Positions 4,467-54,654 of a stretch of DNA of 64,000 nt are shown one piece after another. Location: assembly GCA_965219685.1 (NCBI GenBank), contig CBDCOH010000002.1, forward strand, positions 2,848,001 through 2,912,000, read 5' to 3'. Position 1 is the stretch's first letter. The number at the start of each line of letters is the position of its first letter. Under the pieces are notes generated by a model. The model made no database searches. It worked only from the letters and a program-made list of their open reading frames with translations, and had not been told where the DNA came from. The position numbers and the translations under genes were made by a program. Origin of the DNA: Candidatus Spongiisociaceae bacterium (GTDB taxonomy: Bacteria; Actinomycetota; Acidimicrobiia; Spongiisociales; Spongiisociaceae).

Positions 4467-5330
4467 CTACCCGGGTGGCGCCAGGTAATTGGAGGTTGCC
4501 AGCTTGCCGTCGACGAAGTCGAAGACCCAGGTGGACCCCTTCTGGAACGGAAGGGTCGCCGGATCGCCGACCAGCTTCCGCAGGATCTTCCTCACGTTGG
4601 CCCGATGCGAGCAGAAGAGCCTGGTGCCCCCGCCCGGGCTTTCGACCAGGGACTCGACCCGGGTCCTTCCGGCTTCCTCCCACAGGGCCTTGCTGATCTG
4701 CGGAACGAGCCCGCGCGCCCGGGCCAGGGGAGCGACCGTCTCCACACAACGGGCCGCGGGGCTAGTGACGATCGTGTCGATGTCGAACCACTGGAGGAGC
4801 CCGACGATGGCCTCCGCCTGTGCCGTCCCTCGTTTCGACAGCGGCCGGGCTGAGTCGTCGGGGCCCCACCTGCCGCGGGCGCCGGCTTTGGCATGACGGG
4901 TCAGCAGGATACGGTCGGCGGGACCTCTCCACTTCTCCCCCAAGCCGGCTACCAACTCCCGCTCCGTCGCGTAGGCGACCCGGGAGTCCAGGGACTGCTC
5001 ACCCACCCAGCGGATCCGGTCGACCTCGCCCGAAGGGACGAACGCGAGGCTTCCGGCCCGCATCGCCCAGTAGTCCACCACCTTCGGCATACCGTTCCGC
5101 TTCGTGTACGAGAGACGGCCGAGGTAGCAGCCGACCACGGGAGTAACTCCGGCCTCCTCCCACACCTCCCGGCTGGCGCATTCGAGCAGGCTCTCGTCGT
5201 CCTCCACCTTCCCTTTGGGAAACGTCCAGTCCCCGTACTTGGGGCGGTGCACCTGCAGGAACTCGACGCCGTCCGGTCCTTCACGCCAGACCACCCCACC
5301 AGATGCGCGCTCGACGGGAAGGTCCGTCAT
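4467..5330 (-). CDS. NUDIX hydrolase fused to a histidine-phosphatase domain (MutT1-like)
   Basis: HRPKYGDWTFPKGK...REVWEEAG Nudix box; RHAKAG phosphatase motif; SPAARCVETV. Confidence 0.88.
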   Translation of the reverse strand: MTDLPVERASGGVVWREGPDGVEFLQVHRPKYGDWTFPKGKVEDDESLLECASREVWEEAGVTPVVGCYLGRLSYTKRNGMPKVVDYWAMRAGSLAFVPSGEVDRIRWVGEQSLDSRVAYATERELVAGLGEKWRGPADRILLTRHAKAGARGRWGPDDSARPLSKRGTAQAEAIVGLLQWFDIDTIVTSPAARCVETVAPLARARGLVPQISKALWEEAGRTRVESLVESPGGGTRLFCSHRANVRKILRKLVGDPATLPFQKGSTWVFDFVDGKLATSNYLAPPG

Positions 5331-5434
5331 CGCAAAGACATGAACGTCTGCCTGTTCATAGGATCATGGCCACTCTAGGGGCGCGGCCGCTCCTACCCTG
5401 TTTTCACACCGCGGCACCGGACCGCAGGGTCCGG

Positions 5435-5986
5435 TCATCGCATCCCGGCTCGTCCTACCTCGATCACCGCGTCGACCGCCTCGCGGGCAGTGTCCACCAT
5501 CGTGACGAGACCGGGGGCTGTACGCAGGTCGGCGGTCAACATATCGACGATCCGCCCCCATGCCTGGCGGAATGCGATGACCGGGTCCGGCGGCACTCCG
5601 CGCCTCGCGGCCAGGAACGCATCGTTCCATGCAAGGGCCAGTTCGGTCAGCGTCCCGATGCTCCCCGGCATGACGACGTAGGCGAAGGACAACTCGGACA
5701 TGATCTTGATGCGATCGATGAGGCTTTCCGCCGGAATCTCCTCGGTCAGATAGCTGTTCCCGCCCGGCCTGCCGGGGAAGAGAGCGGGCGCAGTGACCCC
5801 GATCGCCCGTCCTCCGGCACCGGCGGCTCCGGCCGAAACGGCCTCCATCAGCCCGGAGTAGCCGCCATTGACCACCCCGAAACCGGCGTGCGCGAGACGC
5901 CGGCCCAACTCGACACCCATCTCGTAGACACCGTCGCCCGGCCGCGAACTCGACGCGCCGTACACGGCCACGATCCTGTCGTCCAT
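5435..5986 (-). CDS. LOG family nucleotide-binding protein
   Basis: VAVYGAS, NGGYSGLMEAVS and PGSIGTLTEL (PGGxGTxxE-like). Start moved to MDDRIV. Confidence 0.85.
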   Translation of the reverse strand: MDDRIVAVYGASSSRPGDGVYEMGVELGRRLAHAGFGVVNGGYSGLMEAVSAGAAGAGGRAIGVTAPALFPGRPGGNSYLTEEIPAESLIDRIKIMSELSFAYVVMPGSIGTLTELALAWNDAFLAARRGVPPDPVIAFRQAWGRIVDMLTADLRTAPGLVTMVDTAREAVDAVIEVGRAGMR

Positions 5987-6165
5987 CCCGGCCGAGGGTA
6001 CACGGACCGTCCGAGATGCGCGGTCCCTCGGACCCACACTGGACGGCTCGTGTCGCGGCCCGCCGGAGATCGCCCGGCCTTGAACCAGTAGTTTCGTGCC
6101 CTGATTAGGGTGAATGCCGAGTAAGGAAGACCCAGACGCCGATCACTCACAGGAGGAGACGCAGG

Positions 6166-6957
6166 TTGAGCGAACGTCCCCGTTTCTACAGACGAAGGTC
6201 CGTCCAGATCGCCGCGGTGGTGATAGTCGTACCTCTCGCGGCCCTAGCCTGGTGGCTGCTTTCACCCCTCTTCATCGACGAGGTCGTGGACGAACCGTTC
6301 CCCAGGGCGGCCATGGCGGTGATACCGGACGACATGACCGCCGAAGAGGTCGAGCAGAAGATGATGGAGGCGGAGGCGGTCGACACGCCCGCCTACGAGG
6401 ACATGCCGGAACCGGCAGCGGCGGCGCCTCCCACGACCACTCCCGGAACGACGACCACCCACGCGTCCGGCGCGATGGATGCGGATGACCCGGTCGAGAC
6501 GGACGAGGGGAGCGCGGGCACAGCCGTCGAGGAGACCTCGGGCACTACGACCACGTCGCCGGCTTCCGAGGAGGCGAGCGCCACACCTACGACTGCACTG
6601 CAGCAGGCCCGTCCCGTAGCCCTGGCGACCGGGGAACTCATGGATGCCGACTCCTTCCACAAGGGTTCCGGACAGGTGACCCTCTATCGCCTGGAGGACG
6701 GCACGAACCTGGTACGCATGGAGGACATCTCGGTCACCAACGGGCCCCAGCTCCACGTGCTGCTGGCGCCCATACCGAGCGTGGGCAGCCGCGAGGATCT
6801 GCAGTCCGCCGGATACATCGACCTGGGACCGCTCAAGGGCAACAAGGGTTCCCAGAACTACGAGGTACCGCCCGACTATCCGATCCCCGAGGAGATGACC
6901 CTGGTCATCTACTGCGTGCCGTTCCACGTGGTGTTCGCAACCGCGCCCCTGGCGTAG
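6166..6957 (+). CDS. DM13 domain membrane-anchored protein
   Basis: N-terminal TM segment with LSPLFID; HKGSG, VTNGPQLHVLL, LGPLKGNKGSQNY and VIYCVPFHVVFATA. Confidence 0.88.
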   Translation: MSERPRFYRRRSVQIAAVVIVVPLAALAWWLLSPLFIDEVVDEPFPRAAMAVIPDDMTAEEVEQKMMEAEAVDTPAYEDMPEPAAAAPPTTTPGTTTTHASGAMDADDPVETDEGSAGTAVEETSGTTTTSPASEEASATPTTALQQARPVALATGELMDADSFHKGSGQVTLYRLEDGTNLVRMEDISVTNGPQLHVLLAPIPSVGSREDLQSAGYIDLGPLKGNKGSQNYEVPPDYPIPEEMTLVIYCVPFHVVFATAPLA

Positions 6958-6959
6958 GT

Positions 6960-7023
6960 TGGTGAATGGTGAGTGGTGAATAGTGAATGGTGACCAGTGC
7001 TAAGTTAACTTAACACCTAACAC
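6960..7023. repeat. Heptamer tandem repeats between convergent genes
   Basis: GGTGAAT/GGTGAGT units follow the DM13 stop; TAACACC units (GGTGTTA on the minus strand) follow the stop of the opposite gene. Confidence 0.8.
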
Positions 7024-9093
7024 CTAGACCAACGTCTCCAGGATCGCCGACACGATTCGCCGGGGTGTGATGATGGCATGGTGCTCCACCCCGAACTGGG
7101 GCCATGGTGCGTCGAACCCGGCCACCCGCAGGATGGGCGCCTCAAGGTCGTAGAGGGCCTCCTCCGCCACGGTGGCGGCGACCTCGGCCGCCATTCCCGC
7201 CGTCTTCGGGGGCTCCTGCACCAGGACCAGGCGACCGGTCTTCGCCACCGATTCCAGCACGGCCTCGCGATCCCACGGCTTGAGCGTTCTCAGGTCGATG
7301 ACCTCGCAGTCCACCCCTTCGGCGGCCAGATCCTCCGCCGCCGACAGAGCCACCCTCACCATGCCCCCGTAGGTGACCACGGTCACGTCCGGACCGGGCC
7401 TCCGGATCCGGGCCCGGCCGATCGGGAGACTGTAGTAGCCGGTGGGTACATCCTCCCGGCCAGCCCGGTACAGGACCTTGGGCTCGAGGAACAGGACCGG
7501 GTCGGGACTCTCCGCGGCCGCGGTGAGAAGGCCCTTGGCATCGACCGCGGTGGAGGGAATCACCACGGTTAGGCCTGGGGTGTGGACGAAGTAGGCCTCC
7601 GGGCTGTCGGCGTGGAACTCGTGGGGGGCGATCCCCCCGCCGTTGGGCCAGCGAACCACGATCGGCAGCGAGACGTTGCTCCGGGTGCGGAAGCGGAAAC
7701 GGGCCATATGGCTGACGATCTGGTCGAAGGCGGGGTAGACGAACCCGTCGAACTGGATCTCCACCAGCGGCAGGGCGCCGCCGATCGCCATGCCCACCGC
7801 GGTGCCGGCGATACCGGTCTCGCAGAGAGGCGTGTCGATCACCCGGTCGGCCCCGTACCGGTCCAGGAGGCCTTCGGTGATGCGGAACACGCCTCCGGTC
7901 TTGCCCACGTCCTCCCCCATCACCACTGCGTTCCCGTACCGGTCCATGACCTCGCGGAGCGCCGCGTTGAGCGCCTCGGCCATTGTCCAGCGGCTTGTAG
8001 GCCCCTGGAGAGGCGGGTCGTAGCCGATGCGCCACAACTCGTCCGGCACCACCGCGGACGGCCTGCCACCCTCCCTCTTCATCGCAGTGCCGAACTGGCG
8101 GGCGAGATCACGGGGGATCCGAGCGTAGATGTGGCGGACGGCCTCCTCCCGGGGCGGTTCTTGACGGGTCTCGATATCCGCCAGCGCCTCGTCGAACTTG
8201 GCCGCCTCGGCCTTCACCTGGTCTTCGATCTCGTCCGACCACAGCCCCTCGCCTACCAGGAAGCGCTTGAACCGGACCAGCGGATCCCGGTCCCTCCAAG
8301 CGCTGACCTCCTCGTCGTCGCGGTACAGGCTCGGATTGTCGGCGGTGGCGTGGGGGCCGTACCGGTAGGTGACAGCTTCGATCAAGGTGGGGCCGCCGCC
8401 GTTGCGCGCCCGCTCGACCGCCGCCCTGGTAGCCGTATACACCGCCAGCACGTCCATCCCGTCCACCTGCACGCCCGGCATGCCGTACCCGACCGCCTTG
8501 TCGGCCAGCGCAGCCGCCGCGGTCTGGTTCCGGACCGGCATCGAGATGGCCCACCCGTTGTTGGAGCACAGGAACACGGTGGGGGTCTTCCAGAGACCTG
8601 CGAAGTTCATGGCGGAGTGGAAATCGCTCTCGGAAGTGGCGCCGTCCCCGAAGTAGACCACCGTGATCAGGTTCTCGCCGGCCAGCCGGGCCGCCTGGGC
8701 ATGGCCGACCGCGTGGGGCAACTGGGTGGCGATCGGGATCGTGTGGATGTTCATCCGATAGCGATGCACATCCCAGTCCCGGTTGGGCAGACCGCGGAAA
8801 TAGGCGAGCATCACCGAAGGGGGCATCCCCCTCGCAAGCTGGAGGGCGTGCTCCCGGTAGCTGGGGTAGATCCAGTCCTCCGGTCCGATGGCGTAGGCGG
8901 AACCGATCTGGGTTGCCTCCTGGCCCTCCCCGGGCGGGAACGTCCCGAGACGGCCCTGGCGCTGCAGGTTCATCGCCCGACGGTCGAACTGGCGGCCCAA
9001 CGCCATCAACCGGTACATCTCCACGAGGTCCTTGTCGTCCAGGTCCGGCACCTCCCCGACGAGGCGACCGGATGGATCGAGGATCTGCAACAC
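7024..9093 (-). CDS. 2-oxoacid (pyruvate/branched-chain) dehydrogenase E1, fused alpha+beta subunits
   Basis: TPP motif GDGATSESDF...NN; YRYGPH; beta-part GEDVGKTGGVFR, DTPLCETGIAG and EVIDLRTLKPWD in one 689-aa ORF. Confidence 0.92.
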   Translation of the reverse strand: MLQILDPSGRLVGEVPDLDDKDLVEMYRLMALGRQFDRRAMNLQRQGRLGTFPPGEGQEATQIGSAYAIGPEDWIYPSYREHALQLARGMPPSVMLAYFRGLPNRDWDVHRYRMNIHTIPIATQLPHAVGHAQAARLAGENLITVVYFGDGATSESDFHSAMNFAGLWKTPTVFLCSNNGWAISMPVRNQTAAAALADKAVGYGMPGVQVDGMDVLAVYTATRAAVERARNGGGPTLIEAVTYRYGPHATADNPSLYRDDEEVSAWRDRDPLVRFKRFLVGEGLWSDEIEDQVKAEAAKFDEALADIETRQEPPREEAVRHIYARIPRDLARQFGTAMKREGGRPSAVVPDELWRIGYDPPLQGPTSRWTMAEALNAALREVMDRYGNAVVMGEDVGKTGGVFRITEGLLDRYGADRVIDTPLCETGIAGTAVGMAIGGALPLVEIQFDGFVYPAFDQIVSHMARFRFRTRSNVSLPIVVRWPNGGGIAPHEFHADSPEAYFVHTPGLTVVIPSTAVDAKGLLTAAAESPDPVLFLEPKVLYRAGREDVPTGYYSLPIGRARIRRPGPDVTVVTYGGMVRVALSAAEDLAAEGVDCEVIDLRTLKPWDREAVLESVAKTGRLVLVQEPPKTAGMAAEVAATVAEEALYDLEAPILRVAGFDAPWPQFGVEHHAIITPRRIVSAILETLV

Positions 9094-9272
9094 CTACACG
9101 CCCTCCCGACGATCCGAACAAGCCTGCGAAACGACATTGTAAGACCCCGCAGCCGGTCCTGTCAGACCGGGGCCGCACCCTCCTGAATCCCTCCCGAGGG
9201 TCGCATGCACCCACCGGCCCCCGTGGGGACGGGGACGGAATGCCGGTCGCGGCGGACTGTTAACGTGAGTTG

Positions 9273-10358
9273 ATGGCCCGCATCCGCCCGGAGATCGACT
9301 CGCTGACGCCGTACGAAGGGGGGGCGACCACCGACGAGATAGCCCGCCGGTACGGCGTCGAGGACATCGTGAAGCTGGGCGCGAACGAGAACCCGCTGCC
9401 GCCCTTCCCCGAAGTCCAGGAGGCCTTGGTCGCTGCGGCCGCGGGTATCAACAGGTATCCCGACCAGGGCGTGGTGGGACTCGCCGAAAGTCTGGCCGAG
9501 ACGATCGGCGTGGCCCCCGACCACCTCTGGTTCGGGGCGGGAAGCGCCGAACTGCTGACCACCACCGCCCGCGCCCTGGGCGGGCGCGCGCGCAGTTGCG
9601 TCTACCCGTGGCCTTCCTTCGCCATGTACCCGATCAACTCGACGCTGGCCAACGCCGAGAGCATCACGGTACCACTCGACCAGAGCCATGCCGTCGACCT
9701 CGACGCAGTTCTGGGGGCCATCAGGGACGACACCACCCTCGTGTACCTGTGCAACCCCAACAACCCGACCGGCACCTACCTTCCCCGGTCCGAGATCCGC
9801 GCCTTCGTCGACCGGGTCCCTGACGGCACGCTCGTCGTGGTGGACGAGGCCTACGGCGAGTACGTGGCGGCCGAGGACCGGCCGAGCGCCATACCGCTGG
9901 CAGTCGAGCGGCCCAACGTCACGGTCGCGCGCACTTTCTCGAAGATCTACGGGTTGGCGGGACTGAGGATCGGTTACATGGTGGGCCGCCCCGAGACCCT
10001 GCGCTCGCTGCGGAAGGCACAGATCCCGTACGTGGTCAACTCCCTCGCCCAGGTCGCGGCGACGACCGCCCTACGCTTCCCCGAACGGCTGGAGGAACGG
10101 TTCGACATGAACCGAAAGGGTGTCGAATACGTCGAGTCAGCCTTCGGGGAGCGCGGTATCGAGTTCGCCCCCACGCAGGCCAACTACGTCTGGACACGCC
10201 TCGGACCCAGGACCAGGTCCATCATCCAGGCTCTCCTCGAGCGGGGCACGATCATCCGCCCGGTATCGGACCAATGGACCCGGGTCAGCATCGGCGCGCC
10301 CCGGGAGAACCGCCGGTTCATGGCCGACCTCGACGCGGTGCTCGCAGCCTCCCGCTAG
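9273..10358 (+). CDS. hisC: Histidinol-phosphate/aromatic aminotransferase (class I/II PLP)
   Basis: KLGANENP, LCNPNNPTG, VVDEAY and RTFSKIYGLAGLRIGY. Could be the Pat paralogue. Confidence 0.85.
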   Translation: MARIRPEIDSLTPYEGGATTDEIARRYGVEDIVKLGANENPLPPFPEVQEALVAAAAGINRYPDQGVVGLAESLAETIGVAPDHLWFGAGSAELLTTTARALGGRARSCVYPWPSFAMYPINSTLANAESITVPLDQSHAVDLDAVLGAIRDDTTLVYLCNPNNPTGTYLPRSEIRAFVDRVPDGTLVVVDEAYGEYVAAEDRPSAIPLAVERPNVTVARTFSKIYGLAGLRIGYMVGRPETLRSLRKAQIPYVVNSLAQVAATTALRFPERLEERFDMNRKGVEYVESAFGERGIEFAPTQANYVWTRLGPRTRSIIQALLERGTIIRPVSDQWTRVSIGAPRENRRFMADLDAVLAASR

Positions 10359-10376
10359 CCGCGGCGGGCCAGAGGC

Positions 10377-10937
10377 TCAGCTATCCAGCCAGGCTGCCGA
10401 CTGGTCCAGCAGCCACGTGCTCACCCCGTGGGCACACTCGAGCACGTCGCAGGTCTTGAGTTCCCGCATGAATATCTTCTGCAGTGGCAGGTCGATCCGG
10501 CACACCAGTGACAGGCTCCGCGTGGCCGGGTCGGTGACCGACATGTAGGTGTCGGTGGCCGATACCTCCACGGGAAGGGTCATGCCGGACACACCGGCCA
10601 ACTCGGTGGCGAGGATCAACAGATCGGGCGGCTTGGGCAAGGGTGGCAGCGCCCATTTGAAGAACATGGGCAGTTGCAGTCGTTCGTCCTGCTCCTCGTC
10701 GAATTCGTGGTGGCCGGCCACCAGATCCTCGAAGGCCAGGATCACCCTGGGATCCACTTCCAGCACCATGAGCATCTCGAGCGGTCCCTCGCAGGCCTCC
10801 TCGGGATGCAGGTCCACCTCCCAGGCCTGGCCGAGGGAGTAGGACTCGATGAAGTGGCGCTCGGCGTGCACGTGGAATCCATGCTCCACGGCGTGGGCCT
10901 TCATATCGGTTATGAACCCCGCGAGGTCGACACCCAT
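10377..10937 (-). CDS. Hypothetical protein (186 aa)
   Basis: Fills the gap between genes with coding-like GC3 and normal amino-acid composition; no motif recognised. Confidence 0.75.
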   Translation of the reverse strand: MGVDLAGFITDMKAHAVEHGFHVHAERHFIESYSLGQAWEVDLHPEEACEGPLEMLMVLEVDPRVILAFEDLVAGHHEFDEEQDERLQLPMFFKWALPPLPKPPDLLILATELAGVSGMTLPVEVSATDTYMSVTDPATRSLSLVCRIDLPLQKIFMRELKTCDVLECAHGVSTWLLDQSAAWLDS

Positions 10938-11017
10938 GTGAACCTAGGAGCGTCCGGAAGCCCGGACAGGACCGGAGTCCACGCCGGATCGTCGGAGAAG
11001 GCGGGAAGCGGAGCGCA

Positions 11018-12079
11018 TCAAACCCGTACCTCGTAGTACAGATGCATCGGATCGTCCTTCAGGCCGAACTCGCGGAAGGAGCCGAATCCGGCATCGCGGG
11101 CGATCCGTTCGGCGACCACCGGAGGCAATCCCAGCGTCCCCAGAGCAGCGCCCCCCTCGGCCGAAGCCCCCGACAGGAGGCAGGCCGACACGCTGTAACC
11201 GTACTGCATGGCCAGCATCGGGTTCTTCAGGTTCTTCTCCCAGACCTCGGAGCACTTCATGTCCTTGATCAACCAGGTGCCGTCCCGCTTGATAGCCCTC
11301 CGGATGTTGGCGGCGATCCGATCCGGGAAGGGAACGTCGTGCATGCAGTCCAATGTCAGGACCAGGTCGAACCCGGCATCGGCGGGAAGCTCCTCGCCGC
11401 CCGCGTGCACCAGCGTGGCGTTGTCCACGTCGGCCAGCCGCCGCCGGCCGTGGGCAACAGCGTGTCCGGAAGGCTCGAAGCCGACGAAGTTACTGGCGGG
11501 GAAACGGCGAGCCATCGCCCGGACCGAGATGCCTCCCCCACAACCGATGTCCGCCACTACGGCTCCGGCCTGGAGTTTGTCGACGACGCCGTGAAGTTGG
11601 GGAAGCACCCTGTCAAGCAGGTACGTACTCACCCAGGCATTGTTCATCCGGTCGATCTGGCGAGCCACCGTGTCTCCCATGTCGTGGTAGGTCACACCCA
11701 TTCCGGTGCGGAACGACTCCAGGATGCCATCCACCTGGTCGGGTGGGAACCCCCCTATGAACGCCCCGGCCGCGAACGAGACGGTGCTGTCGTCGACGAG
11801 AACCCGCTCCCCCTCCGGATCGAGCGAGTAGGTCCCCTCGGGGCTGCGGGTGAGGAGGCCGGCCGCTGCCTGTCCCATCAACCACTCCCTGACCATGCGT
11901 TCGGCCAGGCCCGTGGTGGCCGCCAGTTGCTCCGGCGTGAAAGCTGCGCCGCCGGCCATGGCCTGGTACAGGCCAAGACGGTCCCCCAGGTGGACCATGA
12001 GGCTCACCACTTCGCCCTGCTTGTACTTCCAGACCTTGAATACGTAGGCCTTGAGGAGTTCCGGATCGACTTTTCGCAT
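11018..12079 (-). CDS. Class I SAM-dependent methyltransferase with N-terminal wHTH (Rv2258c-like)
   Basis: LGDRLGLYQAM, ERMVREWL, VADIGCGGG and DCMHD. Start moved to MRKVDP. Confidence 0.88.
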   Translation of the reverse strand: MRKVDPELLKAYVFKVWKYKQGEVVSLMVHLGDRLGLYQAMAGGAAFTPEQLAATTGLAERMVREWLMGQAAAGLLTRSPEGTYSLDPEGERVLVDDSTVSFAAGAFIGGFPPDQVDGILESFRTGMGVTYHDMGDTVARQIDRMNNAWVSTYLLDRVLPQLHGVVDKLQAGAVVADIGCGGGISVRAMARRFPASNFVGFEPSGHAVAHGRRRLADVDNATLVHAGGEELPADAGFDLVLTLDCMHDVPFPDRIAANIRRAIKRDGTWLIKDMKCSEVWEKNLKNPMLAMQYGYSVSACLLSGASAEGGAALGTLGLPPVVAERIARDAGFGSFREFGLKDDPMHLYYEVRV

Positions 12080-15922: not shown

Positions 15923-16525
15923 CTAGTTCATCCTCGGATCGGCCGGATAGGTGGAGAACCAGGCGTAGCGGCCGCCGGCTCTGCGGAGGACCTCCTCCCA
16001 CAGCTGTTCGGGAGCCGGTGTGAACACATCGTCAGGTAGGGCGTCGACCACGAACCAGCCGTTGGACGACAACTCCGACTCCAACTGCCCCGGACCCCAC
16101 CCGCTGTATCCGGTGAACACCCGCGCTTCGAGCCCCGAGTCGGGCTCCGGTTCGAACTCGAGATCGACGGCCCGGACGCCGAGCACCTCCGGCCAACCCT
16201 CCAACGGCGCCGAACCGGCGCCACGAGCCAGACCGATGCCGCCCCCTTCCCCCACCGGCCCCCCGACGAACACGACCCGTGGATTGACCGCCGCCGACCA
16301 CCACCCGGGGAGATGATCCAGCAGGTCGGCCTTCGTAGGCCGGTTCAGCACCAGCCCCACCGCCCCCTCCTGGCTGTGCTCGACCATCAAGACCACAGTC
16401 CTGGAGAAGTTCGGGTCAAGCATCCCGGGCATCGCCACCAGCAACCGGCCGGCCAGCGACGTGAACTCCTCACCCACGTCAGGGCCCTCCGCTGGCAATC
16501 CCTCCGAACCAGGCATCGTTTCCAT
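15923..16525 (-). CDS. YqgE/AlgH (UPF0301) family protein
   Basis: GRLLVAMPGMLDPNFSRTVVL, GLVLNRP, FVGGPV and GYSGWGPGQLESE. Confidence 0.93.
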   Translation of the reverse strand: METMPGSEGLPAEGPDVGEEFTSLAGRLLVAMPGMLDPNFSRTVVLMVEHSQEGAVGLVLNRPTKADLLDHLPGWWSAAVNPRVVFVGGPVGEGGGIGLARGAGSAPLEGWPEVLGVRAVDLEFEPEPDSGLEARVFTGYSGWGPGQLESELSSNGWFVVDALPDDVFTPAPEQLWEEVLRRAGGRYAWFSTYPADPRMN

Positions 16526-16725
16526 CTACCACCCAATGTTGCCACATCCGGATGAAGCAACGTCCTGAACACGCATGGATACTGGGCTCCGTCAACGAGG
16601 TGCCAAGCTCATGGTGCTCGGCGGATCCTGCCCCTCTCCCCCACGAAGTCTGGTTCCGTTGAGTCCCTCGCATCGGACGAATTCCTCCGGACGACCTACT
16701 TGAACAGCCGCCAGTCAGGGGGAGG

Positions 16726-16896
16726 TCAGGTGACCTCGCTGGTGCCTATGCCTAGATGACCCTCGATCCGGGCAACCCGCTGTTCCAACTGCCCTAGACG
16801 TTCACCAACCTTGTCGCGTCGACTCATCACCACGGTGAACAAGTTGAGAGCAACAACCACTACCCACCCGACGGCGGTAATCGCTACCGTGTCCAT
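16726..16896 (-). CDS. Small membrane protein, 56 aa (TM helix + short coiled coil); below the ORF-track cutoff
   Basis: MDTVAITAVGWVVVVALNLFTVVMSRRDKVGERLGQLEQRVARIEGHLGIGTSEVT; purine-rich RBS (AGAAGGAGAGAGGGG) upstream. Confidence 0.7.
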   Translation of the reverse strand: MDTVAITAVGWVVVVALNLFTVVMSRRDKVGERLGQLEQRVARIEGHLGIGTSEVT

Positions 16897-17267
16897 GCGT
16901 ATCCCCTCTCTCCTTCTACTCGTGGATCAGCTGTATCCAACGCTATCATCGCTACCAGTCACTGTAGTACGATACCACCATCGACGCCAAGTGGTCCACC
17001 CCGTCTCGATAACCCACGACCCAGCCACTGACTGATGCTGTCCACGATCCACCCGAACCCGCCGGCGAAGACGAGGGCATCGTGATTGTTGTTCGGTGAA
17101 TCTCCGCACACTCATTGGGGAGTTATGGAGACCGGGCCCTCGGTGTCCTGCGGCTGCCGCCTACCGGTCGACTCCGGCGAGTAGAACTACTTCCGCACGG
17201 TGTGAGTGCAGAACCTACCAGGAGCACCCAGCACCTTTTGGCGCTCTGTGAACGAAAGACCATAACT

Positions 17268-17289
17268 TGTCACACCCACCTCATATCCT
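17268..17289 (+). promoter_or_regulatory. RecA-NDp/PafBC-like promoter of the cas interference operon
   Basis: TGTCAC-acccacctca-TATCCT, 45 nt upstream of the cas7 ATG (RBS AAGGGAGG). Confidence 0.7.
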
Positions 17290-17334
17290 GAACACACACG
17301 GGTCCTCGACATCTGGACATAAGGGAGGTAACAC

Positions 17335-18578
17335 ATGGCGGCACTCACGTTCGAACAACTCCATCGGGCGGTCGCCGGGGAGGCTGTAGCTCTCCGTTTA
17401 CGAACAACTCTCCAGCCCGCTGGCGGGCCGGGGGACAAGATCTTCCCGCCAACGTACGCTGTTGCGCAGAATGCCGAACACAAGTACGCCGTCGAAGAGA
17501 GAGTTGTCGATGGCGAGATCAAGACGACTGTCCTGTTGGACTCGGTGGCATCCCAGGCCAATCGAGCCGAACTGGCGCTTCTCGACGGATGGGAGACCGA
17601 CGAACTGGACTTCCCGGTCCCGTTCGTTGACTTCACCATTGACAGCGATCTGGCCGATCTAGGTAGGCTGACCGTACTAGAAGCCCCCCACCGAATCGTC
17701 GACGCCATCTTTAGGGACAGCCTGCTGGATGACACTCTGTTCCGTCTCTCAAACGTGGGCCAGTCCATAACGAACTGCAGTCCCCGAGACGCTACGGCGC
17801 TATTTCGCTACTCCCCCACAGCCCTCTTGTTCGGAGTCTGGGACTCGACAGGCCCAAAGGGAGGACTGGGATCGAAGTTCCAGCGAGCCTATGTGTCGGA
17901 GATAGTCGGCATGGATACCAAGATCGGCAAGAAGGTGGGAAGCCGGATCGATCCCTTGCAGATCGAGAAGCTCGCACAAGAGGACAAGGCGTTCAACCAC
18001 CAAGACGCCGCCCAGGTGTGGACCTTCGACGAGAGGGTGGCCGAGAGGGACAAGAGAGGGAAACCCACATATGCATCTCGAGGCGCCGAGACCGGCGAAG
18101 CCGGTCAGCCCTCCAAGATCAACCATGGGAACGTCGCGCCGACCATCGATGAGGTCTCGGGAGGAGTCACAATAAGCGAAGCCATCCAGACCACCGTCAT
18201 TTCCCTGGCCGCGCTCCGGCGACTGCGTTTTGCCGGCCACGATCGAAACACCGAGACAGTAATCCGGACCGCAGTGGCCGCGCTCGGAGTGGCGGCGATG
18301 GCCTACCAACACGAACTCGACTACGACCTTCGCTCGCGTTGCCTTCTGGTTCCGACCCACCCACCGCGGATCGAACTCATCGGTCGCGACGGTTCGGCCC
18401 CCGAAACGGTTACGATCGACCGGTCAGGTGCTGCTGGAATACTGCGAGCGGCCACCGATCGCGCATCACAAGCAGGGATCGGATGGGAGTCACAGGAGAT
18501 CAGGCTGATCCCGGCCCCGAAGCTGGTCGAGTTGATCAAACGGAGCCGTAGCGTGTCGGCGGCAGAGCAACCGTCGGG

Positions 18579-18582
<4 letters not shown>
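17335..18582 (+). CDS. cas7: Type I-G CRISPR Cas7 (Csb1)
   Basis: LQPAGGPGDKIFPPTY, VLLDSVASQANRAE, APHRIVDA, PTALLFGVWDS and LRSRCLL; first gene of the cas operon. Confidence 0.95.
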
Positions 18583-23948
<5,366 letters not shown>

Positions 23949-24106
23949 TACCTTGCATCTTGCGTGCGATCTCTTCAATGCCCAAACGGACATTCGGGTT
24001 CAGTAGTGGGGGCAACGGACGGACCAACCAGATCTGGACAGGCACGAGACTCGCGCTGGTCCAAGATCATTCGAGGCTTCGCAATAACTGATATTCTTCG
24101 CCTGAG

Positions 24107-25750
24107 GTGAGAGATTTACCGAGACTCGTACCCGTTCGTATGGTCAACGAGTTCGAGTACTGCCCGCGTCTGTTCTACTTGGAGTGGGTACAGTCCCGTT
24201 TCGTTGACAACCCAGATACGGTGGAAGGACGCTATGTCCATCGCCGGGTAGACATAGGCGGTGGACGGTTCGGCGACTCGACCGAGGACGAGCCGGTTCG
24301 AGTAGCCCGTTCGGTAACTCTGGGATCCGAACGCCTTGGCCTTATCGCCAAGGCGGACCTCATCGAGGGTTCCACGAACGGGCAAGTGATACCGGTCGAG
24401 GTCAAGAGAGGGCGCCCTCCATCGCATGGCCCTGCTTGGTCACCGGAGCTGATCCAGCTGTGTGCAATCGGTCTCCTGCTCCAGGACAACGGATACGAGT
24501 GCACTGAGGGTCAGATCTACTTCGCCGAGACGCGCCAGCGGAGAACAGTCCCATTCGACGACGAACTGGTAGCCAGAACTCTCAGGGTGCTCGACGATCT
24601 GCGGCCGGTGGCGGCGGCGCCTGATCCACCTCCCCCCCTCATCGACAGCCCGAAGTGCCCACGCTGTTCACTGGTGGGTATCTGCCTCCCCGATGAGACC
24701 AACCTCCACACCCGCAGATCCCGGAAGCGACCCCGGCGACTCACACCTCGGGATTCGGCCGCCCGCCCTCTCTATGTCACCGAGCAGGGGGCGAAGATCG
24801 GGATCAGAGGGGGCCGTGTGAGAGTCACGAGACACAACCAAGAGATCCAGCAGGTCAGAGCCATCGACGTATCCCAGATCTCGGTGTTCGGCAACGTACA
24901 GCTGAGCTCCCAACTCATGCGCGCGGCCTTCTCACGAGAGACCCCGGTCTGCTGGTTCTCGTACGGAGGATGGTTCCAAGGCATCGCCCAAGGACTGCCA
25001 TCGAAGCACGTTGAGCTCAGAAGGCGACAGGTCGGGATCGCAGCCCAAGCCGGTCTGCCGGTGGCACGGCGAATGGTTGAAGGCAAGATCCGTAACTGCC
25101 GAACGTTCCTCAGACGAAACTCTCGATCCGACACAGGGTCCGTTCTGCCCCAGCTCAAAGACTTGGCCGACAAGTCAGCCTCGGCGGAATCGATAGAGTC
25201 GCTACTCGGGTTCGAGGGGACGGCCGCTCGCCTGTACTTCGGACGGTTTGCCGGGATGCTCAAGAATGACGACCTTGGCACGTTCGATGTCAAGGGCCGA
25301 AATCGACGACCTCCCCGGGACCCCACCAACTGTTTGCTCTCCTATGCCTATTCCCTGCTGACCAAAGACCTGACTGCAACTGTGCTCGGAGTCGGATTCG
25401 ACCCCTACTTGGGTCTATACCATCGTTCTCGTTTTGGACGGCCGGCCCTTGCGCTAGATCTGGCTGAGGAATTCCGACCACTCATCGCCGACTCCGTAGT
25501 AGTCAACGTGATCAACAACGGCGAGATCCGCTCATCCGGTTTCATCATCCGCGCCCAAGGAGTGGCCCTGAGTCAACAGGCCCGACGCTCATTCCTTGCT
25601 GCGTACGAGAGACGACTGGATCATCAGGTGACCCACCCGACGTACAAGTACCGCATCACCTACCGTCGCGTACTGGAAGTTCAGGCTCGAATGCTCGGTG
25701 CCTATCTTCTGGGCGAGATTCCCGAATACGTACCCTTCATGACGAGATAG
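24107..25750 (+). CDS. cas4/cas1: Cas4-Cas1 fusion
   Basis: EYCPRLFY, PVEVKRG and KCPRCSLVGICLP (Cas4 Fe-S); LLGFEGTAARLYF, RNRRPPRDP and LALDLAEEFRP (Cas1). Confidence 0.96.
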   Translation: MRDLPRLVPVRMVNEFEYCPRLFYLEWVQSRFVDNPDTVEGRYVHRRVDIGGGRFGDSTEDEPVRVARSVTLGSERLGLIAKADLIEGSTNGQVIPVEVKRGRPPSHGPAWSPELIQLCAIGLLLQDNGYECTEGQIYFAETRQRRTVPFDDELVARTLRVLDDLRPVAAAPDPPPPLIDSPKCPRCSLVGICLPDETNLHTRRSRKRPRRLTPRDSAARPLYVTEQGAKIGIRGGRVRVTRHNQEIQQVRAIDVSQISVFGNVQLSSQLMRAAFSRETPVCWFSYGGWFQGIAQGLPSKHVELRRRQVGIAAQAGLPVARRMVEGKIRNCRTFLRRNSRSDTGSVLPQLKDLADKSASAESIESLLGFEGTAARLYFGRFAGMLKNDDLGTFDVKGRNRRPPRDPTNCLLSYAYSLLTKDLTATVLGVGFDPYLGLYHRSRFGRPALALDLAEEFRPLIADSVVVNVINNGEIRSSGFIIRAQGVALSQQARRSFLAAYERRLDHQVTHPTYKYRITYRRVLEVQARMLGAYLLGEIPEYVPFMTR

Positions 25751-25752
25751 CG

Positions 25753-26049
25753 ATGGCTAGACGCAAGAGATACCTAGTGGCGTACGACATCCGAGACGAC
25801 AAACGGTTGAGACGGGTCCACAAAACGGTGAAAGGCTACGGATGGAGCCTCCAGTACAGCGTGTTCATCTGCGACCTGGACGCCATGGAGCTGCTCTCGC
25901 TGAAGACAGACCTCGGCTCGGTGATCCACCACGCTGCCGACTCCATAGCTATCGTAGACCTAGGCGCCCCGGAGGAGCGCGGCAGCGAGTGCTTCCAGTT
26001 CATGGGTGTCGCGGCTAGGTTGCCCGCATCCGGTGCCGTGATTGTCTGA
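25753..26049 (+). CDS. cas2: Cas2
   Basis: YLVAYDIRDDKRLRRV...LQYSVF. Confidence 0.96.
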   Translation: MARRKRYLVAYDIRDDKRLRRVHKTVKGYGWSLQYSVFICDLDAMELLSLKTDLGSVIHHAADSIAIVDLGAPEERGSECFQFMGVAARLPASGAVIV

Positions 26050-26220
26050 TGCGAGCGGTCCGGTGACACCCGTAGCCCCAGTGAGCGCTCGTTTCGTCGC
26101 TCTACCAGGGGTTTCCGGCTCCTTGACAACCAAATGCGGACTCCAGGAAAGCCGCCCTTTCAAGTACCGCTCGCAAACCTTGACAAAGCCCCAGGTCAGG
26201 GCTAGGTTTTGGTGCGAGCC
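26050..26220 (+). promoter_or_regulatory. CRISPR leader
   Basis: 171 nt between cas2 and the first repeat; GCGAGCG...CGCTCG(C) inverted motifs and two TTGACA hexamers. Confidence 0.75.
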
Positions 26221-28133
26221 GAACGGGCAGTCTTACGACTGCCCCTCCATTGCGGCTGCTTGGGCTTGGCCGTCGGCTCGAAGGTTCCGATCTGAACGGG
26301 CAGTCTTACGACTGCCCCTCCATTGCGGCTGCTCCCTCGGTGCGACGGTGACCTGTACGGCGGGTCGAACGGGCAGTCTTACGACTGCCCCTCCATTGCG
26401 GCGGGTTGCTTCGCTGATGGTTCCCCGCTCCCGGACTGAACGGGCAGTCTTACGACTGCCCCTCCATTGCGGCCGGGTGAACCCGTGGCAGGGCGACCGC
26501 ATCACCGCCGGAACGGGCAGTCTTACGACTGCCCCTCCATTGCGGCTGTGGTGGCGGAGGGGCTGCTGAGGGTCTCCAGAGGAACGGGCAGTCTTACGAC
26601 TGCCCCTCCATTGCGGCTGCGCCGGCATGGCCGGGATCGTGTGGGTGCGGTCGGAACGGGCAGTCTTACGACTGCCCCTCCATTGCGGCTCTGCCATCCT
26701 TGTGCTCCTCTCTCCACTGGCGGATGAACGGGCAGTCTTACGACTGCCCCTCCATTGCGGCCTAGCCCGTCGATCCCGATAGGGGCCGCCATGATGGCGA
26801 ACGGGCAGTCTTACGACTGCCCCTCCATTGCGGCGGGGTATACGACAGCCGCCGGCGCCGGCGGGTGACCGAACGGGCAGTCTTACGACTGCCCCTCCAT
26901 TGCGGCATGGATGCAGCGATGGCAGGGTTCAAACTGTATCGGGAACGGGCAGTCTTACGACTGCCCCTCCATTGCGGCAAGACACACCAGTAAATCAGCT
27001 TGTACGACTACCCGAGAACGGGCAGTCTTACGACTGCCCCTCCATTGCGGCGATGTCGAGGGCGAGGATCGAGTCGTCGGAGTCGGTGGAACGGGCAGTC
27101 TTACGACTGCCCCTCCATTGCGGCCCGGTCTCCGCCCCGTGTTCGTCGTCAGGTCTTTGTCTGAACGGGCAGTCTTACGACTGCCCCTCCATTGCGGCCG
27201 GTATCTTTTCCTGCCGTTTTTCCGGTCGATCGACGAACGGGCAGTCTTACGACTGCCCCTCCATTGCGGCTGATCGGGTGCTGGGTTGTCACCGGCGACC
27301 GGTTCTGAACGGGCAGTCTTACGACTGCCCCTCCATTGCGGCCCGACGGATCCGACCGGGACCCCGCATCCGACGAGAGAACGGGCAGTCTTACGACTGC
27401 CCCTCCATTGCGGCGCCGCGGACCCGCCGCCGCAGGCGCTGTACATCGGCCGAACGGGCAGTCTTACGACTGCCCCTCCATTGCGGCCATCCGAGGGGAG
27501 TCCGTTCCCCAATCGGTATTGGAGAACGGGCAGTCTTACGACTGCCCCTCCATTGCGGCATCCCTCCGTCGGGGGTCTGCCACCAGGCGAGATTAGAACG
27601 GGCAGTCTTACGACTGCCCCTCCATTGCGGCACACGCCACCGGTGCCGCCGCCGGTCTTGTCTAGGGCGAACGGGCAGTCTTACGACTGCCCCTCCATTG
27701 CGGCACGGGCAGGTTGAACACGCCGCCGGCGGTGGTCACGAACGGGCAGTCTTACGACTGCCCCTCCATTGCGGCACTCTGGGCATCATCACACCCAGCC
27801 GGGCCAGCACGAACGGGCAGTCTTACGACTGCCCCTCCATTGCGGCATTGTTAAGCCTACCGGCGTGCTCTCTGCCTACTGGGAACGGGCAGTCTTACGA
27901 CTGCCCCTCCATTGCGGCAGCAATAGCCTTACTACCTACTCCTGTGGGCCGCGAACGGGCAGTCTTACGACTGCCCCTCCATTGCGGCGCACCTGACGCA
28001 AGCCGATACGGTCGGACGTATGATGAACGGGCAGTCTTACGACTGCCCCTCCATTGCGGTACCTCGATCCACACCGCGGCGTAGGTGCACCACACGTAAA
28101 CGGGCAGTCCTACGACTGCCCGTTCATTCCAGT
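26221..28133 (+). CRISPR. CRISPR array: 27 repeats (36 nt GAACGGGCAGTCTTACGACTGCCCCTCCATTGCGGC), 26 spacers of 34-38 nt
   Basis: Repeats counted from 26221, 26294, 26367 to 28025 (last base T), plus a degenerate terminal copy at 28098. Stem GGGCAGTC/GACTGCCC of 8 bp; ATTGCGGC 3' handle typical of I-G. Confidence 0.99.
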
Positions 28134-28141
28134 ACCGACCG

Positions 28142-29317
28142 CTACCAGAAGCTCGACTCTTCGGAGTGCACGTGGTCGGGGAGTCTGTAGCTGATTCCTG
28201 CCTCGTCGAATGCGGATACCTCCAGAAGGGAGGTGAAGGCGGTGAAGTTGGTCTGCTTGGCTACCTTCGCCAGGTACTTGCGGACGAAGGCCTTGTAGCG
28301 CATCTGCATCCTGAACCACGGGAGAACGCCGACCACCGGTGTGGCCGGGTACATGAGCTGGTCGGACAGCGGCTTGCCGACCAGAGCCCGCGACACGCGA
28401 TAGACGTACTTGCTGAAGCTCCGGCGGACCTCGGGTTCGGTCATACCCACCAGCAGCGGTCCCGAATTGATCAGTGCATTGGCCATCACCATCGACTCGA
28501 CTCCGGGAGTGGGCTCGCACATCCCGCCGATCTCGAACAACCTCACCGCCGCCGCCTCGTCTTCGAACAGAATCGTGTCGGGTATCCCCATCAGATAACC
28601 GGTGTAGCGCCAAACGGCCATGAAGCTCTCGCGCTCCTCGTCGTTGTAGCTCGCCCCCAGGTTCTCCATGTGCCTGAGCAGTCTGGCCGAGAACGCCGTG
28701 ATCGCGAAGCCCAGATGCGCGGCGCTGACGGGCGCTCCCCAAGCGTCGCGATCCCAGTCATCGGACTTGTCCAGGAGCCTGCGGATCTGTGCATGGATGA
28801 TCCGGACCCGGACCGAGAGCTTCCACCCGTCACCGGTCCTCTCCAGCCCACCGGGCATGAAACACTCGATCATGTGCCGGTTGTTCTGCTTCAGCCGCCT
28901 CACACCCTGATCGCGGAGCCGGCCCGTTATGAAGAAGGACTTGCTGATATTGGTCGAGAAACCCTCCACCAGCGTTCCGGCCAGCATCGAGGCCAGAACG
29001 ACCGGTGAGTTCCGGTGGAACATGCGGATACCGGGCAGGAAGGCATCCGGGTCCAGCCAGTCGGGCGTGGCGGATGCGTGGTCGAAGAACTCCCGTACGA
29101 AGACCGGGCTCGCCTTGAGCGCCTCCTCGTCCATATCCATGGCGACGCGGAGTGTCTGGTTTATCTGCCTGGGTCTCTGCGAGTAAAGCTGTTCGACGAA
29201 AGCGTCCGCAACCGGATCGGTGATGAGCATGTGGGCGATGTAGTTCGACGCCAACTCCGGGTCGATCAGCCGGGCCTTCTCGAAGCCCTCCGCGTAGTCC
29301 GTCGGTATGTCGAGCAA
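28142..29317 (-). CDS. DUF2236 / MpaB-Lcp-like heme oxygenase family protein
   Basis: DPVADAFV, PDWLD, VRVRIIHAQIRR, WGAPVS and WRYTGYLMGIP. Confidence 0.85.
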   Translation of the reverse strand: MLDIPTDYAEGFEKARLIDPELASNYIAHMLITDPVADAFVEQLYSQRPRQINQTLRVAMDMDEEALKASPVFVREFFDHASATPDWLDPDAFLPGIRMFHRNSPVVLASMLAGTLVEGFSTNISKSFFITGRLRDQGVRRLKQNNRHMIECFMPGGLERTGDGWKLSVRVRIIHAQIRRLLDKSDDWDRDAWGAPVSAAHLGFAITAFSARLLRHMENLGASYNDEERESFMAVWRYTGYLMGIPDTILFEDEAAAVRLFEIGGMCEPTPGVESMVMANALINSGPLLVGMTEPEVRRSFSKYVYRVSRALVGKPLSDQLMYPATPVVGVLPWFRMQMRYKAFVRKYLAKVAKQTNFTAFTSLLEVSAFDEAGISYRLPDHVHSEESSFW

Positions 29318-40822: not shown

Positions 40823-41827
40823 CTAGCGCCCCGGCCCTAGATCCGGTTCCAAGAACCAGGGTTTCGATGGTGGAGAGTGATCGTAGAATCGTTCCCCCGG
40901 CTGCGCCGGTGACCACAAGGAATGATCGTCATCGCCGAACAGGCTCGTCAATCCCATAAACTCATTGTCCAGTCGTATCCGAATTCGACGTGCATCCTCA
41001 CGCATCTTCGGAAACTCTTCAGCGGCCTGCGCGTACACCGACCGCATAATTCGATCGCCCGCATCATTGTCCGTTGCGAAGATCATGTAGTAGATAATCT
41101 GCCCGCGTTCGTTCCGAACCTCGATGGCATGTGTCCACCGATAGCGGAGGTCAGTTTCGAGCCTCCATCTCATTAGATTGAGATACTCTTCTCGTGCCCG
41201 ATGAGGCTCGATTATGTTTCGTAAGCGTGCCAGGTATATGTGGCGCCAGTCAGTGGTACCGTACATCTGATCTATTGAGGCTGCGTCGCTCGGTCGTACT
41301 TCGCGTCCGTCAACTGGTAACACACGACTGAACATCGGTGGTGCAAATAACAGAAATAGCTCAGCCTTATACTTCCTTCCTCTCTTGAATTGGGCAAGGG
41401 CTTTGAGTGTAATCCACTTTGCCTCCATACCGTTCGGATCTATGAAGGCGAACGTAGGTGCCCAGTTGAACATCTGCAGTCGGTTCAACTCCATCGGGAT
41501 CAGTTCATTACAGTCTCCTCCAAACACTTGAAAGTCACGACCAGGATAGTCACGCCGCAGATATGCCTCCAATCTCGGAGCATTCGTTTTGGTTTCAAAG
41601 AACCGAAGTTTCGTGAAGGGAGGATCATCCACGGATAGGGCAATCGCTGCGGATCCTTCAAGCGGTTCGTTAGTAAGCCGGTCACGATTTGCCGGAATTC
41701 CGGCAAAGGCATCTATGTATATCGTTTCGGATGCCTTTAGCTTGGTTGCTGTCGTGAAGGCATCCAAGTATCGCCGTAGGATATCCAACTTTCCCTTAGT
41801 CCAGTAACCCCAGGCTCGTTCCGTCAT
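40823..41827 (-). CDS. Three-Cys-motif partner protein (TcmP, methyltransferase-like fold)
   Basis: WGYWTKGKLDILRRYL, YIDAFAG, GDCNE and FAFIDPNG; lower GC; paired with DUF5131. Confidence 0.88.
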   Translation of the reverse strand: MTERAWGYWTKGKLDILRRYLDAFTTATKLKASETIYIDAFAGIPANRDRLTNEPLEGSAAIALSVDDPPFTKLRFFETKTNAPRLEAYLRRDYPGRDFQVFGGDCNELIPMELNRLQMFNWAPTFAFIDPNGMEAKWITLKALAQFKRGRKYKAELFLLFAPPMFSRVLPVDGREVRPSDAASIDQMYGTTDWRHIYLARLRNIIEPHRAREEYLNLMRWRLETDLRYRWTHAIEVRNERGQIIYYMIFATDNDAGDRIMRSVYAQAAEEFPKMREDARRIRIRLDNEFMGLTSLFGDDDHSLWSPAQPGERFYDHSPPSKPWFLEPDLGPGR

Positions 41828-42609: not shown

Positions 42610-42631
42610 AGCGTATCAATCAACTGTGACA
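42610..42631 (-). promoter_or_regulatory. RecA-NDp/PafBC-like promoter of DUF5131-TcmP
   Basis: Minus strand TGTCAC-agttgattga-TACGCT, 33 nt upstream of the ATG. Confidence 0.7.
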
Positions 42632-48283: not shown

Positions 48284-48357
48284 ATGGTGAGTCGTGAATG
48301 GTGAATGGTGAATGGTGAGTCGTGAATGGTGAATGGTGAATGGTGAATAGTGAATAG
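48267..48357. repeat. Heptamer tandem repeat, 13 units (TGAATGG/TGAGTGG/TGAGTCG/TGAATAG)
   Basis: Direct reading; includes the gcvPB stop codon. Confidence 0.92.
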
Positions 48358-53492: not shown

Positions 53493-53524
53493 ACTATCAA
53501 CTATCAACTATCAACTATCAACTA
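53493..53524. repeat. Heptamer tandem repeat (ACTATCA x4)
   Basis: Direct reading; begins at the stop codon of the minus-strand gene. Confidence 0.85.
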
Positions 53525-54632: not shown

Positions 54633-54654
54633 TGTCACACCCCTAGGGCATAGT
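54633..54654 (+). promoter_or_regulatory. RecA-NDp/PafBC-like internal promoter of ssb
   Basis: TGTCAC-acccctaggg-CATAGT in the rpsF-ssb gap. Confidence 0.7.

Follow-up and report, generated by a model that had tools for sequence, protein, structure and literature searches.

A candidate PafBC-type promoter in front of the type I-G CRISPR-Cas operon of a Candidatus Spongiisociaceae bacterium

Introduction

Among the DNA-damage promoters of mycobacteria, those served by the activator PafBC follow the consensus tGTCgg(N10)tA(N3)T, with a -26 element and a mode of action named sigma adaptation in the published passages of PMC8635444, and single-stranded DNA (ssDNA) binds the WYL domains of PafBC according to those of PMC11804915. 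The genes dnaB and alkA are listed among the damage-induced genes in the available part of PMC8151990. In the present study, we analysed a stretch of 64,000 nucleotides from the genome (4.42 Mb, 65% G+C) of a Candidatus Spongiisociaceae bacterium, an actinobacterium associated with sponges, C2:2848001-2912000, where C2 is contig CBDCOH010000002.1; this whole stretch is called the window. It carries a type I-G CRISPR-Cas operon, and 45 nt before its first gene, cas7, stands the element TGTCAC-N10-TATCCT. A preliminary description of this DNA, made from the letters alone, had taken the element for a PafBC-type promoter, and its account of the mycobacterial background (PafBC, the -26 element, sensing of ssDNA) agrees with the passages of PMC8635444 and PMC11804915 cited here. 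We argue that the operon is probably transcribed from such a promoter.

The coupling of a damage response to immunity has been described elsewhere. DdaA, a WYL activator of Moraxellaceae, controls the DNA-damage response, restriction-modification and CRISPR-Cas, and its motif precedes repair genes, restriction-modification systems and 90.3% of Acinetobacter CRISPR-Cas systems; it raises type I-F interference after UV, for which prophage induction after damage is given as the rationale, and its site is placed some 50 bp upstream of the start, an arrangement which the authors describe as unlike sigma adaptation (passages of PMC12392091). CapW and BrxR are local WYL repressors of defence systems in the excerpts of PMC11662680 and PMC9122601, and the former describes WYL repressors that sense ssDNA at defence loci. 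PMC12848934 cites Rafique 2025 on PafBC and mycobacteriophage resistance. Our literature search found no paper on the regulation of type I-G and no paper placing CRISPR-Cas in a PafBC regulon, Actinomycetota included.

Results

The promoter element before cas7

The element is the 22-mer TGTCACACCCACCTCATATCCT at 17268-17289 of the window (plus strand), read directly from the sequence, and 45 nt separate the end of TATCCT (17289) from the ATG of cas7 (17335), exactly as previously described. No usable -35 hexamer stands 16-18 nt from this -10: the bases at that position (cataac/ataact) match TTGACA poorly. A consensus scan of 16400-28200 returned no sigma-70-type promoter, although it also missed the leader promoter of the CRISPR array at 26180-26208, whose -10 matches at only 3 of 6 positions. 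The parts of the promoter are as follows.

17268-17273, plus strand: -26-type element TGTCAC of the cas operon promoter, read directly; the same hexamer and N10 spacing are found at recA
17284-17289, plus strand: -10 hexamer TATCCT (TANNNT type), 10 nt after the -26 element, read directly
17294-17297, plus strand: predicted transcription start, placed from the 7-nt distance between -10 and ATG at leaderless sites of the same class
17321-17328, plus strand: Shine-Dalgarno sequence AAGGGAGG of cas7, read directly

From the predicted start, the 5' untranslated region of cas7 would be about 39 nt long. A LexA box was also considered as a control element of the cas promoter and was rejected, as no exact GAAC-N4-GTTC occurs in 16525-17335 and versions with one mismatch are found only at 16645 and 17341.

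The locus behind this element is a complete type I-G locus, with all effector and adaptation genes and an adjacent array, and the scores for TIGR02570, TIGR02165, TIGR02621, NF049934 and NF049935 exceed the curated cut-offs.

17335-18582, plus strand: cas7g/csb1 (PF09617, E 3.2e-52; TIGR02570)
18579-20261, plus strand: csb2, the Cas5-Cas6 fusion of type I-G (TIGR02165, E 3.6e-93)
20254-23016, plus strand: cas3g helicase-nuclease (TIGR02621, E 7.6e-224; Cas3 HD and helicase domains)
23013-23948, plus strand: Cas8g / Cas3-extension family protein of type I-G (PADLOC Cas8g, E 4.3e-60; NF049934, E 7.1e-82)
24107-25750, plus strand: cas4g-cas1g fusion (NF049935, E 8.5e-230)
25753-26049, plus strand: cas2 (PF09827, E 6.3e-18)
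26180-26208, plus strand: ordinary-looking leader promoter TTGACA-17 nt-TAGGTT, 12 nt before the first repeat, read by eye
26220-28059, plus strand: CRISPR array with a 36-nt repeat, about 25 repeats

A gap of 158 nt (23949-24106) separates cas8g from cas4g-cas1g. Since the array has an ordinary-looking -35/-10 promoter of its own, the guides may be constitutive and the effector inducible. In the 800-nt gap between an AlgH-like gene and cas7, reading by eye showed a small open reading frame (ORF) at 16757-16898 on the minus strand; it encodes about 47 aa, among them a hydrophobic stretch, and has a separate Shine-Dalgarno sequence.

A class of sites with fixed spacing

Four matches to TGTCAC-N10-YANNNT are present in the window, against a mean of 0.47 in shuffled sequence, and none of 100 shuffles reached four; the hexamer alone is not enriched (21 occurrences, shuffle mean 31.7). 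The earlier remark named about ten other TGTCAC hexamers that lack a -10 at this spacing; in the whole window, 17 of the 21 lack it. The three further sites, reported before ssb, dnaB and DUF5131-TcmP, were recovered together with the identities of these genes.

54633-54654, plus strand: site ending in CATAGT, 52 nt before ssb (54707-55162)
56167-56188, plus strand: site ending in CATACT, 83 nt before dnaB (56272-57654)
42610-42631, minus strand: site ending in TACGCT, 33 nt before DUF5131 (41830-42576, minus strand), which is followed by TcmP (40823-41827, minus strand)

Throughout the genome, TGTCAC-Nn-TANNNT was counted 4, 10, 1, 7, 34, 2, 5, 4, 3 and 10 times at n=6-15, that is, 34 times at n=10, and with YANNNT as the -10 the count was 97 at n=10 and 10-39 at the other spacings. 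TGTCAG, TGTCGG and TGTCGC, combined with TANNNT, gave no peak at n=10 in the genome. The 97 strict matches consist of 40 copies of an intergenic repeat, 5 copies of an HNH gene and two sets of unique sites, 34 lying mostly outside and 18 mostly inside coding sequence, a sorting that depends on a crude gene caller, whose calls took in 78-86% of the genome and did not include csb2 or cas8g. When the two repeat families were masked, 25 intergenic TANNNT sites remained at n=10, compared with 9, 0, 3, 1, 2 and 1 at n=7, 8, 9, 11, 12 and 13. With 25 sites against 0-9 at other spacings, about nine in ten such sites stand above the background. In addition, 9 unique sites and the 5 HNH copies have an ATG 6-8 nt past the -10, a distance that fits the one expected for leaderless actinobacterial mRNAs starting from a true -10. 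The motif is a real class with fixed spacing and not a product of chance.

Genes behind the class

Functions were assigned downstream of the 34 unique non-coding strict sites. Genes of repair, recombination and replication follow 12 of them, defence genes 5 and conflict-associated genes 3; another 6 precede ORFs without a family, and 8 have no credible ORF downstream. None of the annotated targets behind the 34 is a ribosomal or metabolic gene.

recA: motif 59 nt before the ATG
Lhr, YraN, RmuC and an AlkA-like glycosylase: motif upstream
UvrD-type helicase with a Cas4-type nuclease domain (AdnA/B-like): motif upstream
RecB/Cas4-like nuclease: motif upstream
ComF-like and NucS-like proteins, both weak matches: motif upstream
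SSB, a second SSB-like protein and DnaB: motif upstream
comM (C2:1242713), in addition to the 12 above: motif upstream, the site being recovered by eye from the coding set of the gene caller
Defence genes: cas7; jetC-jetA-jetB; a type II methyltransferase; a RhuM-Fic protein (PDC-S23); an LmuB-like ATPase
Conflict-associated genes: a macro-domain protein; DUF5131-TcmP; ARPP-1

In mycobacteria, lhr and adnAB are PafBC targets as well.

The jetC-jetA-jetB genes form a Wadjet type II operon at positions 4470-11250 of the segment C2:3851000-3866000 (JetC, E 3.8e-260), and jetC is leaderless, directly behind TGTCAC-N10-TACGGT. At positions 7555-11486 of the segment C2:3957000-3970000, on the minus strand, sspA-sspB of the phosphorothioation type adjoins a Shedu SduA-like gene; the motif before sspB (C2:3965650), likewise recovered by eye from the coding set, falls inside the 3' end of sspA and was excluded from the intergenic promoter count.

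Conservation at recA and rank of the cas7 site

The recA gene of relatives was used as an independent reference for this promoter type. TGTC[AG][CTG]-N10-TANNNT lies upstream of recA in every one of the 28 relatives that could be evaluated, which represent 12 families of the order, a set that leaves out one truncated locus and one unpublished genome; the -26 hexamer is TGTCAC in 24, TGTCAT in 2 and TGTCGC in 2. In 26 of the 28, a LexA box GAAC-N4-GTTC is found further upstream, giving a two-promoter layout, and recA of mycobacteria has the same layout. From 26 distinct recA promoters of relatives, with no sequence of this genome and no cas sequence, a position matrix was made. By this matrix the cas7 site ranks 15 among 8,841,878 positions, with 17.9 bits, and those ranked above it include recA, an SSB-like gene, comM, rmuC, an adnAB-like gene, jetC and yraN among others.

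The regulator

Exactly two genes with a WYL domain are encoded in the genome, and they are adjacent, with a 4-nt overlap. Among PDB entries, the upstream one is matched best, along its entire length, by mycobacterial PafB (7p5x_AY/9fnd_X, E 2.4e-30), and the downstream one, likewise along its entire length, by mycobacterial PafC (7p5x_AX, E 1.4e-31). By its sequence matches the pair, at C2:965038-966902 on the minus strand, is pafB-pafC, and it belongs to a Pup-proteasome locus of canonical type, whose genes run mpa, dop, prcB, prcA, pafA, pafB, pafC, tatA/B, tatC; homologues of both proteins, which the promoter assignment had called for, are thus present in the expected place. LexA is also encoded, and GAAC-N4-GTTC boxes were found upstream of recA, at ruvC, close to lexA and, in the HNH genes, immediately past the -10. 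Given these LexA boxes and the PafBC pair, both damage pathways known from mycobacteria appear to exist here.

Conservation of the element before cas7

Orthologues of Cas7 were found in 18 of 60 searched relatives. TGTC[AG][CG]-N10-YANNNT stands 60-86 nt before the cas7 ATG at 14 of 19 distinct loci of relatives; two loci have near variants and three have none. In public metagenome-assembled genomes (MAGs), Cas7 proteins 66-80% identical to this one are found both in Acidimicrobiia and in roughly a dozen other phyla. Among the named MAG loci, the strict pattern lies between -150 and -20 of cas7 in 10 of 22 from Acidimicrobiia, in 1 of 54 from other phyla, where Cas7 is 66-72% identical, and in 2 of 4 unlabelled ones. 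As spacing controls, N8 and N12 with a looser -10 (NANNNT) gave 1/22 vs 1/54 and 2/22 vs 0/54. The sole match outside Acidimicrobiia lies on a 7-kb contig of a MAG labelled Acidobacteria, and its Cas7 nests among those of Acidimicrobiia. In the Cas7 tree, 53 of the 54 rows from outside Acidimicrobiia form one clade together with one unlabelled row, and the remaining row, L117, stands in the Acidimicrobiia part. The host contrast therefore reflects a few events on the tree and not 76 independent ones, so that Fisher values for it overstate the evidence.

The stronger argument is that the element has been retained within Acidimicrobiia while its surroundings changed. In 29 distinct upstream regions of cas7 anchored on the motif, the flanks hold 0-0.4 bits per column and the end of the -10 lies 29-99 nt before the ATG. 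The base after TGTCAC, a position outside the search pattern, is A in 28 of the 29. The expectation that the motif would be kept before type I-G cas7 in related Acidimicrobiia, with diverged flanks, is thus borne out by 14/19 loci in relatives and 10/22 under the strict pattern.

Two further observations concern Cas7g itself. A distant Cas7g (33% identity) from a different family of the order has TGTCGGTG…CATAAT upstream at the same N10 spacing, and in mycobacteria the -26 element takes this TGTCGGTG form. At 66-73% identity to the present one, Cas7g was seen in MAGs that bear the labels Gammaproteobacteria, Gemmatimonadota, Binatia, Chloroflexota, Latescibacterota, Acidobacteriota and Thermodesulfobacteriota and in a Nitrosopumilaceae archaeon, and the labels of several MAGs (Spongiisociaceae, Poriferisodalis) indicate symbionts of sponges. 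These relationships suggest that one I-G lineage has recently spread by horizontal transfer within a habitat.

Multi-copy elements carrying the motif

The intergenic repeat is a family of about 165-200 nt with 51 nhmmer matches in the genome, 45 of them strong (E<1e-20) and none in the window; an example is found at C2:3675300-3675800. Each element opens with a TTGACC-type -35, which a 17-nt spacer separates from a CATACT-type -10; the spacer holds TGTCAC, exactly 10 nt before the -10, and a stem and a T-run close the element. No Rfam match was obtained at E <= 0.01 with 5 copies, and the RNAalifold consensus of 36 copies is a weak structure (-8.8). The element is multi-copy in 17 of 24 relatives of the same family, and a BLAST search of 17 genomes from other families found none. 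The element may represent a family of small RNAs that respond to damage, or a mobile repeat that carries a promoter. We also considered it as the source of the cas7 upstream region, for the reason that a TTTTCGCG-like stretch occurs upstream of cas7 in several relatives; this was rejected, as none of the 51 nhmmer matches is at the cas locus. A role as leader of one gene family was rejected too, the neighbours being unrelated and lying on the opposite strand in 27 cases and on the same strand in 18.

The second multi-copy unit, with 5 copies (C2:468613, 512278, 1412504, 1750630 and 4118681), is an HNH-motif gene coding for about 452 aa. Each copy has TGTCAC-N10-TACAAT/TATAAT, followed immediately by a perfect LexA-type GAAC-N4-GTTC box, and starts at a leaderless ATG; mycobacteria have damage-induced HNH repeat genes of similar appearance.

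Heptamer arrays

Long arrays in which 7-nt units (such as TTCACCA, CCACTCA and ACGGACA) are repeated in tandem lie directly 5' of uvrA, uvrB and lexA, and runs of the heptamer TTCACCA come right before uvrA and uvrB. Such arrays also occur in the window, and they could be phase-variable or regulatory spacers.

uvrA, C2:1056832, minus strand: 7-nt array upstream
uvrB, C2:1069871, minus strand: 7-nt array upstream
lexA, C2:384082, minus strand: 7-nt array upstream
Window 48267-48355, 53493-53524 and 57759-57854: arrays of 7-nt units

Discussion

The best-supported reading of these results, to which we give a probability of about 0.75, is that a damage-responsive promoter of the PafBC type drives transcription of the type I-G cas operon. 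By analogy with mycobacteria, immunity is then probably switched on by DNA damage or by stray ssDNA. The membership of the cas operon in an ssDNA and damage regulon, the central claim of the preliminary description, is supported in silico by the motif class, the recA regulon, the pafBC pair and the conservation of the element. All the sequence-based checks suggested in that description gave results that favour it, fully or in part.

The mechanism that we propose would begin with damaged DNA, or with ssDNA arising from invading or degraded DNA. As in mycobacteria, ssDNA lodged in the WYL tunnel would activate the PafB-PafC heterodimer, in which PafB would read the -26 element while PafC contacts the housekeeping sigma factor at its region 4 (sigma adaptation); binding of PafBC to TGTCAC would follow from the same analogy. 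The hexamer TGTCAC, exactly 10 nt before a TANNNT -10 and with no -35, would then drive the cas operon, with cas7, csb2, cas3 and cas8g as one transcription unit and probable read-through into cas4/1-cas2. Cascade and Cas3 would rise together with recA, lhr, the adnAB-like gene, rmuC, ssb and dnaB, and the ssDNA made by Cas3 may feed back positively on the activator.

Several results weigh against this reading. The hexamer differs from the mycobacterial chromatin immunoprecipitation consensus at positions 5-6 (AC vs GG), and 40 of the 97 strict matches belong to a repeat family with a TTGACC-type -35, which is not the textbook architecture without a -35. It had been expected that the motif would be enriched at recA and at uvr, ruv and radA genes; this held for recA, but uvrA and uvrB lack both the TGTCAC motif and a LexA box, at ruvC a LexA box stands without the TGTCAC motif, and a TIGR00416 search found no radA. 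The relaxed pattern TGTCRY-N10-NANNNT, present before cas7 at 18 of 22 Acidimicrobiia loci and at 1 of 54 from other phyla, was written after the misses had been inspected and carries less weight, and 4 of the 22 Acidimicrobiia loci lack even this pattern. The Cas7 tree needs two host changes and five motif changes. In other lineages of Actinomycetota the pattern was found at 2 of 11 I-G cas7 loci outside the order, in a phylum survey (401 genomes, 14 with Cas7g, this genome counted in both) whose sample is too small for generality and in which cas7 may not be the first gene of some loci.

Some of these points bear on an alternative that we regard as unlikely, namely that the motif class is real and includes the cas7 site but is read by a factor other than PafBC, or is not specific for damage; it could, for example, be a promoter type that serves the mobile, defence and DNA-metabolism genes of this lineage in general. 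The unusual hexamer, the absence of the motif from uvrA and uvrB, the approximately 45 repeat-element copies in which the motif is paired with a -35 hexamer, and the many targets that are defence genes or genes without an assigned function would all be accommodated by it. It accounts less well for the motif at recA in 28/28 relatives, beside a LexA box in 26/28, and for its presence at Lhr, adnAB-like, RmuC, AlkA-like, ssb and dnaB genes. Moreover, the 22-nt layout matches PafBC promoters exactly, and PafB and PafC are the sole WYL proteins of the genome.

That another, unseen promoter mainly drives the cas operon, the TGTCAC element giving a minor boost, appears to us quite improbable. The 740-nt region upstream of the motif (16525-17267) offers room for such a promoter, 4/22 Acidimicrobiia cas7 loci are without the element, and two loci of relatives (L046, L048) show ordinary extended -10 promoters in its place; yet the scan of 16400-28200 gave no sigma-70-type promoter, and the motif is held at 29-99 nt before the ATG in 29 unique loci where all else has diverged. 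A chance match without function is the least probable of the explanations, and we give it hardly any weight. The 0-9 intergenic background matches at wrong spacings show that such matches do arise, but a rank of 15 among 8.8 million positions by an independent matrix, the retention in relatives and the correct strand and distance to cas7 argue against it here.

Beyond the PafBC-type promoter of the cas operon, we tentatively consider a wider reading, somewhat short of an even chance, in which the PafBC regulon has grown from a repair regulon to a general nucleic-acid alarm in this lineage of Acidimicrobiia. One ssDNA-sensing activator would co-induce recA-type repair, CRISPR-Cas I-G and Wadjet, and with them defence genes of the methyltransferase, Lamassu-like and Fic types, as well as a family of small elements, about 45-50 in number, each with its promoter. 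While moving between phyla of sponge symbionts, I-G would carry this promoter only in hosts that have PafBC. The ssDNA from Cas3 and AdnAB could feed back on PafBC, amplifying interference and primed adaptation.

If the promoter assignment is true, an actinobacterial class would time its CRISPR effector and several innate systems to ssDNA and DNA damage, through sigma adaptation and not through a local regulator. This would be a second and mechanistically different case beside DdaA of Moraxellaceae, and it would suggest that the coupling of immunity to damage arose more than once. Lineage-specific -26 matrices made from recA promoters could then be used to predict inducible defence systems in uncultured Actinomycetota. 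In metatranscriptomes of sponge holobionts, the level of cas7 is predicted to track those of recA and lhr.

Comparison with known systems

The mechanism of PafBC-type promoters and the switching on of immunity by a damage response are already known. What is new is a PafBC-type promoter with these targets and with a lineage-specific hexamer, in a phylum for which we found no such description. The earlier statement that this wiring was undescribed therefore stands for PafBC with type I-G, but not for the general idea, since a WYL damage activator with CRISPR-Cas in its regulon is published for DdaA in the passages of PMC12392091.

The promoter before cas7 shares with the mycobacterial PafBC promoters, as they are presented in the excerpts of PMC8635444, PMC11804915 and PMC6789036, the 22-nt arrangement of a TGTC-type -26 element, N10 and TANNNT, and the lack of a -35. 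The dnaB and AlkA-like targets found here agree with the damage-induced set in the available part of PMC8151990. As in mycobacteria, the motif at recA stands beside a LexA-controlled promoter and pafB-pafC lie in the Pup-proteasome locus. It differs in the hexamer, which is TGTCAC and not TGTCGG, in a regulon which, as judged from sequence alone, contains CRISPR-Cas I-G, Wadjet and other defence genes, and in a multi-copy small element whose promoter also has a -35.

Unlike the CapW and BrxR systems, which in the passages of PMC11662680 and PMC9122601 are repressors adjoining the system that they control, no WYL gene is found at the present cas locus; in both settings, as far as the analogy holds here, WYL sensing of ssDNA or DNA damage would turn on immunity genes. 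The difference from DdaA, as far as it is described in the passages of PMC12392091, lies in the phylum, the protein, the promoter layout and the CRISPR-Cas type (I-G vs I-F). The likeness is that an activator of the WYL family would govern a damage response, with its motifs at the promoters of repair genes and, as is predicted here, of CRISPR-Cas.

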